Shown: positions 44 through 63,131 of the stretch, piece after piece | Layout: each line of letters starts with the position of its first letter | Position numbering within the stretch: position 1 is the first letter of the stretch | Source of the DNA: Eledone cirrhosa | Taxonomy: Eukaryota | Direction: 5' to 3' | DNA length: 64,000 nt | Assembly: GCA_964016885.1 (NCBI GenBank) | Contig: OZ024746.1 | Coordinates: 34,534,001 to 34,598,000, forward strand | Position numbers and translations under genes: made by a program | The notes under the pieces: model-generated | Databases searched by the model: none | Told to the model about the DNA's origin: nothing | The model's input: only the letters and a program-made list of their open reading frames with translations

Positions 44-78
44 TATGCAAATTAGTCTGCCCACTACTAATTTTCATA
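44..78 (+). promoter_or_regulatory. Octamer ATGCAAAT (45-52) in the 5' arm of an imperfect inverted repeat; present in every 466-bp unit
   Basis: TATGCAAATTAG-11 nt-CTAATTTTCATA. The motif is seen directly; its function is inferred. Confidence 0.45.
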
Positions 79-137
79 GAAAAAGCATATAACGATATGT
101 GCTTTTACGATTCTCTAGAAAGGCCGGAAGATAGGTA

Positions 138-182
138 AATATTGCTGATGAGATGTAACAACATCGAAACTAGTCCAATATT
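138..182 (+). ncRNA. Minimal type I hammerhead ribozyme, copy 1
   Basis: Stem I AATATTG/CAATATT, core CTGATGA, stem II GATGT-aaca-ACATC, GAAA, palindromic stem III ACTAGT, GTC cleavage triplet ending at 175. Confidence 0.92.
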
Positions 183-603
183 CCTTGTCTGGCTTTCTGG
201 AGAATAGAGGAAAGGTGTTTCCTCGAAAACCAGTATGACTCTAAAAACCGGTTTGTCTGTGTGTTTACATACAGAATAGCTGGACACTCACAGTAAAGTG
301 TCCAGTGAAAAACTCGGTACATCTACATATGTACACGTGTGTGTATTCATATGCATACTAGTATTTCAGTATACATATGTGGATGTACATTTTTAATTTA
401 ATTCTTTAAGCGTCAGTCATACAAAATTGAGTTACAAACGAAACGAAATTTAATTTCGTTTCGTTATTTGTTTTTATCGTCTCCGCTGAACCGGTACGTA
501 CTCACGCTCTATGCAAATTAGTCTGCCCACTACTAATTTTCATAGAAAAAGCATATAACGATATGTGCTTTTACGATTCTCTAGAAAGGCCGGAAGATAG
601 GTA

Positions 604-61600: not shown

Positions 61601-62528
61601 CGTCATAGTTGTGTGTGTTGCTATTATTGCTATCATGGTGGTTGTTGTTGTTTCTATCATTAGCATTATTATTATTGTTATGATTGCTAGATGTATTGTT
61701 GTTTACTTCACCGTTATTGTTGTTGTTGTTACTGTTATTTCTACCATTGTGGTTGTTACTATTATTATGTTTCTTGTTTTTGTTGATGTTGCTACATGTA
61801 CTATTTCCATTATTACCACTGTGGTTATTGTTGTTGTTGTTCGTATTGTTACCGTTATTACTACTGTGGTCACTGTCGCTGTGTCTGTGGTTAACGTTTC
61901 GATTATTATTATTATTGTGGTTGTTGTTGTTCCGTCTATCGCTAGTATTATTGCCATTATCACTATTTCTCACTTTCCTGCCATTGTTATGGTTATGGCT
62001 GTTATTTCTATACCCAGAGTTATTGTTTATATTACTACTACCGTTATTATTGTTGTTGTTGTTTACCTTTGCATTCCAACGTATTTTTGTGAAACACTTT
62101 TCCAGCTCCGTTTTGCATTCCATAGGGTTAATCTTTTTGTAGATGGCAAATGTTGGTGGTAACCTTAGGATTTGTTGTTCTTGTTCACTGATTAAAGTGT
62201 TCCCATAGATATTTACTGTGTGGTCATTGGTAAATTCTTCCGGTAGTTTTACATCAGTCATACGGATATTGTCGATGATATCTGGGTATTTTTGAGAATA
62301 TTCGATTTTCCTTTCTTGTAGTTTTTTCTTGTTCATCCATTCTAATTTCTTCTTGAAATGCCTACAGGATTCGTTTCGAGCGTATTTCGTTTCGCGTCGG
62401 ATGACGCTCATGAAGTCATCTCTCTCGTTTGCTGTGATGAGATTTCGGATTTCCTTACCGTTAATGCGTTTCTGTTATTAATTCTGGCAATATTACGCAA
62501 ATATGACCCTCCCCAAGTATAACAATAT
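58647..62528 (-). mobile_element. Penelope-like element 3 bounded by 58-bp inverted repeats
   Basis: 58647-58704 is the reverse complement of about 62470-62527. Confidence 0.9.
59235..62411 (-). CDS. PLE RT + GIY-YIG (1058 aa) with an Asn-rich insert
   Basis: PTDKSG, KDHK, MDVVSLYP, GAAIG, RYVDD, LPVLD, C-X4-C-X2-C linker, VIYSIRC...YIGET. Confidence 0.9.
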   Translation of the reverse strand: MSVIRRETKYARNESCRHFKKKLEWMNKKKLQERKIEYSQKYPDIIDNIRMTDVKLPEEFTNDHTVNIYGNTLISEQEQQILRLPPTFAIYKKINPMECKTELEKCFTKIRWNAKVNNNNNNNGSSNINNNSGYRNNSHNHNNGRKVRNSDNGNNTSDRRNNNNHNNNNNRNVNHRHSDSDHSSNNGNNTNNNNNNHSGNNGNSTCSNINKNKKHNNSNNHNGRNNSNNNNNNGEVNNNTSSNHNNNNNANDRNNNNHHDSNNSNTHNYDDRYNDDPLEKLFFNPADKTYKMGNIYPTRLPFNKRVCIPQQIDDETEAQCTIARNKIRQVVDRYTMRQSRPEAQQLGRKHVEGLVSLKQRTTDGEVVCLPTDKSGRMSIDSMPNYIEAMQPHITNTSEVAQQTHDGREKILNAHMMMWTDILKPSRRTANNFQASNNGIPPLYGLCKDHKTVDDPTTGPPIRHVCGANIASNYRISYFLSMVIRPIIKMSPYVCESTEDLLSRISECNKNRSLSNCIIGSMDVVSLYPSINIDFAVKRCVEMIIESEVEFCDVDTDELGLLLKLTYDTDYLDSHDLRCFCPSRHIRGRPPTITSMAKKTPIGRWIGWTKAIRTPQKTDQVRKIVAHAIGASIKTTLKGHIFKFNEKIYTQNEGAAIGVSIAGDVANLFMVWWERRLKDLLNESSIDLIMYSRYVDDINIVIRTSPLESINRFDLERSTLESIQQIANSIHQSITVTIDFPSKHPNNRLPVLDTELWINTIDERAQILHSHYAEPMASKYLILKNSAMSSSAKFNILIADLVRVMKNVSSMCDPTEMERHIQHCINRMQFSGYNQRDRVRVYEGAMEKYKTLIELDMKGICPLCRSKSWNSLDRARHKIGKATSWYDNQRYQSVMFVDATPGGKLANQCRKALRKTHLNIKVVEKPGTTIKSLISETYPFKKTHCTNRKCIICKVNPRINCKTRNVIYSIRCTEGTFRNMTTSYIGETARSIGERIDQHWGELKGRTNKSVLYEHARQQHDGNIDNIEIRIISKHRNDPADRQIREASEIEIRRPKLNR

Positions 62529-62589
62529 CTGTTTCGACATACGATTTCATATAAAAAACCTCGCTAAACTAATTCATCGCCGCTATATA

Positions 62590-63131
62590 TATATCTATAT
62601 ATATATATGTAAGTATGTATGTATATGTACATACATATATGTATACAGACGTACAGTAGCATGCATATATATATATATATATATATATATATATATATAT
62701 ATATATATATATATATACATACATATATGCACGCATGAGTTTAGCGGACGCTTATTATAACGCCGCTTTGTTCGTTTGTAAACAAACTGAACAGCCTGAA
62801 TTTATGCCATACGGTGTTAAGGCAACCACGTCACCTTTTTTTTTTTTTTTTTTTTTCGTTCAACACTGACACAGGAACGATGTACTAGTTTCAAGCTTGA
62901 TAGCTATCATCAGCACCGTATACCCATCTGCCAGACAGTTGAACGTTCGAAAGTATATACTTTCCTTATGAAAATTAACGGCTGAGCAGCCTAATTTGCA
63001 TATTGAGTGAGTTAAATCGGTCAGGCATACCGAAAACGATAAGTTGAAAATATACATACATAAGTTACATTTAAGTAAGTGCCATACTAAGAGTGAGAAA
63101 TGAAATTTCGTTTTCATTTTTTTCAACTTAT
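62590..63131 (-). repeat. Retrozyme-like monomer of the 55-kb/466-bp family with a short 5' inversion
   Basis: Collinear with about 55190-55555. HHR and octamer (62994-63001) are on the - strand. Confidence 0.82.
62877..62919 (-). ncRNA. Minimal type I HHR
   Basis: Stem I ACGGTG/CATCGT, CTGATGA, tAGCT-atca-AGCTt, GAAA, palindromic ACTAGT, GTA. Confidence 0.87.

Follow-up and report, generated by a model that had tools for sequence, protein, structure and literature searches.

Does a short DNA word that recurs upstream of self-cleaving ribozymes mark a promoter carried by each repeat, or a signal in the repeat RNA? The question is raised by a 64,000-nucleotide stretch of DNA from Eledone cirrhosa (hereafter the window), in which the octamer ATGCAAAT precedes hammerhead ribozymes in retrozyme loci. 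Both readings had been offered in an earlier note on this DNA. Comparison with host snRNA genes suggests that the octamer, a PSE-like box and a TATA-like box, set apart as in the host, probably form an internal snRNA-type promoter from which Pol II would start just upstream of the hammerhead.

Octamers and hammerheads in the window

Pattern matching places ATGCAAAT at 45-52 on the plus strand and at 48300-48307, 55507-55514 and 62994-63001 on the minus strand of the window. The hammerhead cores start at 145, 48208, 55434 and 62913, giving octamer distances of 93, 92, 73 and 81 nt. These are exactly the positions and distances that had been claimed, and the inverted repeats described around the octamer were found at the loci as well. 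In total, the window holds nine matches to ATGCAAAT compared to 4.26 expected, and seven of the nine fall in retrozyme loci if the four 466-bp units are counted. All four loci are real, but they represent three families, as the copies at 55 kb and 63 kb are closely related. These two copies were also considered as pLTRs of Penelope elements, which is ruled out by their membership of a tandem family (B). The ORF next to them has its own hammerhead-like motif, which lacks the octamer-box-TATA cassette.

Family A is a 466-bp retrozyme array of four units on the plus strand (1-1875), whose start lies upstream of the window together with an inverted copy. Its octamer (45-52, with repeats at 511, 977 and 1443) is followed on the same strand by a PSE-like box (61-66) that is weak at rank 4 of 280 and a score of 3.6, a mirror arm able to pair with the octamer (67-78), a TATA-like box (86-92, with a start predicted near 118) and a type I hammerhead (127-198, with the core at 145 and predicted cleavage after 175). 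The hammerhead matches Rfam HH9 with 38.9 bits (E 2.5e-6), which is under the gathering score of 52. Paired changes among contigs are present in stem II, and lend support to the hammerhead fold only.

Family C, on the minus strand, is a 323-bp array of 2.4 units (48015-48778). Its cassette (48258-48307) consists of an octamer at 48307-48300, a box at 48291-48286 and a TATA at 48264-48258, with a predicted start at about 48234, and the region from the core to the predicted cleavage site spans 48177-48208. A second 48-kb copy has GTGCAAAT in place of the octamer and a broken core. Family B is represented on the minus strand by a cassette at 62953-63001 (octamer 63001-62994, box 62985-62980, TATA 62959-62953, predicted start about 62928), with the core and predicted cleavage site spanning 62883-62913. 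A short family B copy carries a cassette at 55466-55514 (octamer 55514-55507, box 55498-55493, TATA 55472-55466, predicted start about 55441) and a core through predicted cleavage site at 55404-55434, also on the minus strand. In this copy the stem III palindrome is altered by a change in the loop, and the predicted start lies just 7 nt before the core.

The 48-kb and 466-bp families had been thought to share only the hammerhead. They indeed lack alignable similarity (z of at most 2.0 for the leader, upstream and downstream parts), but the YCA box and TATA are common to both, and in family C these lie at +16 and at +41 to +43 from the octamer, as in family A.

As a negative control, a hammerhead-like motif at 58862-58895 on the minus strand, downstream of a 1079-aa Penelope-like ORF (59238-62474), has no octamer upstream. 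Additional hammerhead-like cores without a cassette are located at 43023 (minus strand), 10794 (plus strand) and 58520 (plus strand) of the window.

The repeats otherwise have the properties of animal non-LTR retrozymes, which are noncoding tandem units of 310-470 bp with one type I hammerhead each and strong self-pairing. One such hammerhead per short tandem unit is seen in families A, B, C and F, and no ORF of 100 aa is present in the family A and C arrays. The circular fold of the family A unit reaches -151.5 compared to -94.3 (sd 4.9) for mononucleotide shuffles. Monomer-length looped contigs occur in two contig sets and are compatible with either a circle or a tandem array. Animals with published retrozymes also have genomes with Penelope-like elements, as reported in PMC7229834, PMC7761336 and bioRxiv 10.64898/2026.07.22.740005. 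Cleavage and circles have been shown for published retrozymes, whereas those described here are known from sequence alone.

Promoters of host snRNA genes

All 14 distinct upstream regions of the host Pol II set (U1, U2 and U5) carry YCA[AG]T at -55 to -58, followed by a TATA-like box. The five Pol III loci (three U6, U6atac and RNase MRP) are built differently: TATA is found at -30, the octamer, exact or with one mismatch, occupies -76 to -78, and none has the YCA box. Between -60 and -99, 13 of the Pol II promoters differ from the octamer by at least three mismatches, and the 14th is without an exact octamer. The extended word TATGCAAAT[TG]AG occurs at every one of the five Pol III loci and in none of the Pol II promoters. 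Ten of 19 promoters (U1, U2 and U6) also carry a distal 12-mer, located between -257 and -288, and its random rate is 1.35e-5 per position. A role for the octamer as the distal element is therefore ruled out in the host, where the distal element is another word and the octamer is proximal in Pol III type-3 genes. Host U6 terminators are T7-T10. In U1, U2 and U5, a AATTAAAT word is also found near -89, and an AAWCAGA word often follows the gene.

Near-identical cluster copies of U1, U2, U5 and U6 were left out of these sets, and within-family paralogues are not independent. Four matches without the octamer or TATA at the expected place, which are repeat-flanked and were taken as retrocopies, were not included in the U6 set, nor were two loci with an insertion inside the promoter and three others. 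Seven of eight U6atac loci were left out as putative retrocopies. The host snRNA promoter words were not found in print in the literature searched.

A cassette that matches host promoters

The retrozyme cassette begins with the octamer, followed after 8 nt by a YCA[GC]Y box, then a TATA 26-27 nt further on, and then helix I of the hammerhead. In families A-E, YCA[GC]Y is 16 nt and TATA is 41-43 nt from the octamer start, and the box-to-TATA spacing in the aligned families is 25-27 nt. It is these two spacings, octamer to box and box to TATA, that are fixed, rather than the octamer-to-ribozyme distance that had been called near-fixed. The start predicted from the box and the 57 nt of the host falls 7-27 nt before the core, in the 5' strand of the extended helix I. 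Such a start would account for the only roughly fixed distance from octamer to ribozyme.

A two-part box-plus-TATA model was trained only on host Pol II genes and required a spacing window of 24-29 nt. Out of 280 upstream positions, the model puts one site at the top in 10 of 14 retrozyme-like representatives; the site comes second in family C and fourth in family A, and its score exceeds the 95th percentile of the null in eight of the 14. Among Penelope-type controls, none of 12 exceeds the 75th percentile, and one of 30 in a second control set exceeds the 95th. The site is at +16 from the octamer in seven of nine octamer-bearing cases, and at +15 and +21 in the others. A host-matching PSE was found in families B, C, D, E, F and G. 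The family A box reaches approximately the 75th-90th percentile of the null, and the model found no box in families H and I. A single full-length matrix performs less well, ranking family A 85th and family B 25th-39th of 492. The comparison with host snRNA genes, as proposed earlier, thus supports the promoter reading in an amended form: the octamer is not the distal element of this host, and the shared core is a PSE-like box plus TATA.

Family F, a 310-bp tandem unit, was recovered by a search blind to the octamer. Its box lies at -77 from the core, with TATA 27 nt later. The host distal 12-mer, with one mismatch, directly follows its cleavage site, a position equivalent to -257 from the predicted start of the next unit. 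This distal word had been noted in host genes before family F was discovered. Elsewhere, three mismatches to the distal element are seen at the equivalent place in family C, and the element is absent in families A and B. An old E-type copy carries the host distal word about 35 nt upstream of its octamer.

Distribution of the octamer among hammerhead repeats

The genome (3.0 Gb) was searched by pattern. An octamer followed by 65-95 nt and a core matches at 38,710 places, compared to 443 for the reversed pattern, and this excess mostly reflects the copy number of a few families, as assigned for the first 100 matches. A second octamer pattern gives 1,661 matches compared to 202 in the control. 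Families D, E and G were obtained from octamer patterns as single older copies, and the family G loci lack a relevant Rfam match. Family D contains two or three tandem 33-bp modules of octamer plus box.

Three octamer-blind patterns were chosen by stem III loop; these cover some of the loops, so the family list is incomplete. Family F dominates the first 100 of 16,834 matches to one pattern (control 214) and lacks the octamer, with a best match of two mismatches. Another pattern yields a dispersed Penelope-associated type (17,015 matches compared to 3,151), with the octamer in none of 30 loci. The third gives 2,492 compared to 26 matches, and its first 30 loci comprise 22 C-type copies, seven of family K and one other. 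Among the C-type copies, 14 have the exact octamer, two have an altered form and six are truncated or rearranged there; of the 16 that extend across the site, 14 thus match exactly. Family K has a 485-bp unit without the octamer and a borderline box (7.6). Pairing of its hammerhead-like core is doubtful, and a 12-nt word upstream of its box is identical, by eye, to the 5' part of host U2, which may be chance. The octamer is present in one of three degenerate copies of family H.

Hammerheads picked with Rfam lack the octamer (0 of 18), as do seven of eight hammerhead-like matches in 369,800 random bases; counted as Penelope-type hammerhead loci, these samples and the dispersed type give 0 of 18, 0 of 7 and 0 of 30. 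The octamer is a mark of most tandem retrozyme families found, and not of hammerheads generally. The earlier note had made the presence of the octamer across families a test of its reading; this holds for most tandem families found but fails for the large family F and for family K. The octamer as a feature common to all hammerhead repeats is ruled out by these two families and by the Penelope-type loci.

How the cassette might work

In the proposed mechanism, SNAPc would bind the YCA box and TBP the TATA 26-27 nt further on, and transcription would begin some 57 nt past the box, in the 5' strand of helix I. A start before the core would allow the first ribozyme to be transcribed whole, after which transcription would read through the tandem array. 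Hammerheads with a short palindromic stem III would then make one cut in each unit, probably acting as dimers. The resulting unit-length RNA would include the promoter of the next unit, and might form a circle and serve as template for a Penelope-type reverse transcriptase. As such an RNA contains the promoter, the promoter would travel with the element.

By its sequence, the octamer matches the POU/Oct-1 site. As a probable POU site, it would be an activator module open to exchange: it is used in families A-E, G and H, whereas in family F the preceding unit would provide the host distal element, at -257, as activator. Tens of thousands of repeats appear to carry host snRNA promoter words ahead of a ribozyme, and are likely to switch themselves on.

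Certain observations weigh against the promoter reading. Outside the repeats, the proximal octamer of this host belongs to Pol III genes. Families D, E and G were discovered through an octamer pattern, and the box is weak in family A.

Which polymerase

The cassette shares its YCA-to-TATA spacing with host U1, U2 and U5 and its proximal octamer with U6, U6atac and RNase MRP. It could instead be a U6-type Pol III promoter, or a dual Pol II/III promoter resembling that of H1, in which the octamer element and TATA are active; this is judged unlikely. A Pol III-like proximal octamer plus TATA is present in families A-E and G, and the extended word that includes TATGCAAAT matches, among the host promoters compared, the Pol III loci only. 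However, the octamer is absent in families F and K, and the YCA box of the repeats is missing from all five host Pol III loci. Spacing also differs, as octamer and TATA are 41-43 nt apart in 10 of 14 representatives compared to 46-48 nt in host Pol III genes, or 4-5 nt shorter. The host Pol III spacing is not matched by most representatives, although two family G copies have 47 nt; two representatives have no TATA.

Runs of T5-T6 occur in the monomers of families A, C and one B subtype, and Pol III would be prone to terminate at these before reaching the next ribozyme. Runs no longer than T4 are present in family F and the other B subtype. Given these T4-only monomers and the long host terminators, the T-run argument for Pol II is partial. 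Overall, the YCA box, the shorter spacing and the T5-T6 runs probably favor Pol II, and the octamer, the family G spacing and the long host terminators may leave room for Pol III or dual use. A precedent for dual use is the human H1 (RNase P RNA) promoter, which combines an octamer, a PSE and a TATA in roughly 100 bp and is reported to serve both polymerases, but which is a host gene promoter with a Staf site and lies outside its transcript (PMC7949045).

Possible inheritance without activity

A second alternative is that the words descend from a common ancestor, such as a captured snRNA upstream region, and are inactive, with the repeats transcribed by read-through from neighbors. Read-through is the model in the field, as presented in PMC7761336. 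The families are linked by intermediates: families B and D and an intermediate align with z of 11-36, and A-B alignments have z of 4-6. Given that the families are partly related, they do not count as independent cases, and shared descent could explain the words. Selection on the octamer is not evident from family A, in which octamer sites show no variants (0 of 8) compared to 33 of 461 sites; the difference is not significant and is uninformative on conservation. In family B, no variant is listed in the octamer, box or TATA. Nonetheless, the words and their spacing persist where the flanks no longer align (A compared to C, E and F), and in family F the geometry is retained around another activator word, placed at the distance used by the host, which makes inactive inheritance improbable and fits an internal snRNA-type promoter.

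DNA site or RNA stem

Folding z values for the octamer hairpin, computed in windows chosen around the hairpin, are -5.2 for the 466-bp unit, -1.7 at 63 kb, -1.9 at 55 kb, and -1.6 and -2.8 for the two 48-kb copies. The hairpin is at chance level in families D, E and G (z of -0.5, 0.0 and 0.7) and in five host Pol III promoters. In family B, two variants in the partner strand stand at approximately 52% each with the octamer unchanged. With a partner strand that changes without compensation, and with no hairpin in three of the families that carry the octamer, the evidence points to a DNA site more than to an RNA stem. The hairpin as the conserved feature is ruled out by the folds of families D, E and G and the family B variants; in some families it might be a side effect of selection for RNA that pairs with itself.

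The earlier proposal that the octamer hairpin is a conserved RNA signal for Penelope reverse transcriptase is very improbable: although the hairpin is predicted in families A, B and C, persists in the circular monomer fold and retains pairing through G-U in two family A variants, it does not exceed chance in families D, E and G and is impossible in F, its partner strand changes independently in family B, the same octamer precedes host Pol III genes, in DNA that is not transcribed, and Penelope-type hammerhead loci are without it.

Associations with Penelope-like elements and a second word

In inverted-plus-tandem arrays, the copies typically diverge from one point, with those on the minus strand coming first and those on the plus strand after. 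At 56047-56858 of the window, an inverted piece of retrozyme B is directly joined to the end of a 5'-truncated Penelope-like ORF, which is GIY-YIG-like by eye and has no Pfam match. A template switch is possible for this single case. Penelope-like ORFs with inverted ends are located at 59238-62474 (minus strand), 11737-13824 (minus strand) and 7200-8830 (plus strand). Pfam RVT_1 and GIY-YIG are matched only by 11737-13824 and its inverted piece, and the 1079-aa ORF has no Pfam match.

In 13 of 17 retrozyme representatives, the core is followed at 83-117 nt by a TGTTT[AG][CT] word, usually within a small hairpin. In the window it is found at 256-275 (plus strand), where family A has a short TGTTTA hairpin, and at 62784, 55330 and 48126 (minus strand), with the family C copy at 82 nt. 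Its position tracks the cleavage site and not the next start, and it is a candidate RNA signal. Many Penelope-type loci, however, have a similar word too, 52-60 nt past the core.

Comparison with known systems

The promoter of newt satellite 2 reportedly holds an octamer. Like the repeats described here, newt satellite 2 is a tandem hammerhead repeat with an internal snRNA-type promoter, so named in PMC2220036, which cites Coats, Zhang and Epstein 1994, and its transcription is reported to be by Pol II in that paper and in PMC6765202, which cites Cremisi 1992. Amphibian motifs likewise have a short palindromic stem III, as given in PMC7229834. In contrast to newt satellite 2, there are many families here, with two activator solutions and with words that match the promoters of the host itself.

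The Schistosoma SM-alpha promoter has A and B boxes. SM-alpha is similar in being a hammerhead repeat with its own promoter and in needing a tandem arrangement to propagate, but that promoter is reported as Pol III (PMC6765202 and PMC2220036). Host snRNA promoters share the distal 12-mer with family F, whereas the retrozyme promoter would lie inside the transcribed unit; the combination of a proximal octamer with a YCA box is seen in none of the host genes examined.

A review states that metazoan retrozymes seem to be without promoters and conserved motifs (PMC7761336), and a word search of the preprint bioRxiv 10.64898/2026.07.22.740005 found no use of the word "promoter". By title and the start of the abstract, no such promoter in invertebrate retrozymes was found in the literature searched, which left most subscription papers outside.

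Implications

A broader, tentative reading is that animal retrozymes might be mimics of snRNA genes, combining a Pol II PSE-plus-TATA core, placed for a start at helix I of the hammerhead, with either the host Pol III octamer or the host distal element, which the helix I strand of the ribozyme would provide to the following unit. If true, this would account for their constitutive expression and their need for tandem copies, and newt satellite 2 would be the rule rather than the exception. Few repeat-derived RNAs in animals are as abundant as retrozyme circles, and the cassette offers exact start sites and mutations to examine in several families at once. Guide-RNA expression in this group of animals would likewise benefit from the host promoter words, namely the Pol II box at -57, the proximal octamer of Pol III genes and the distal 12-mer.
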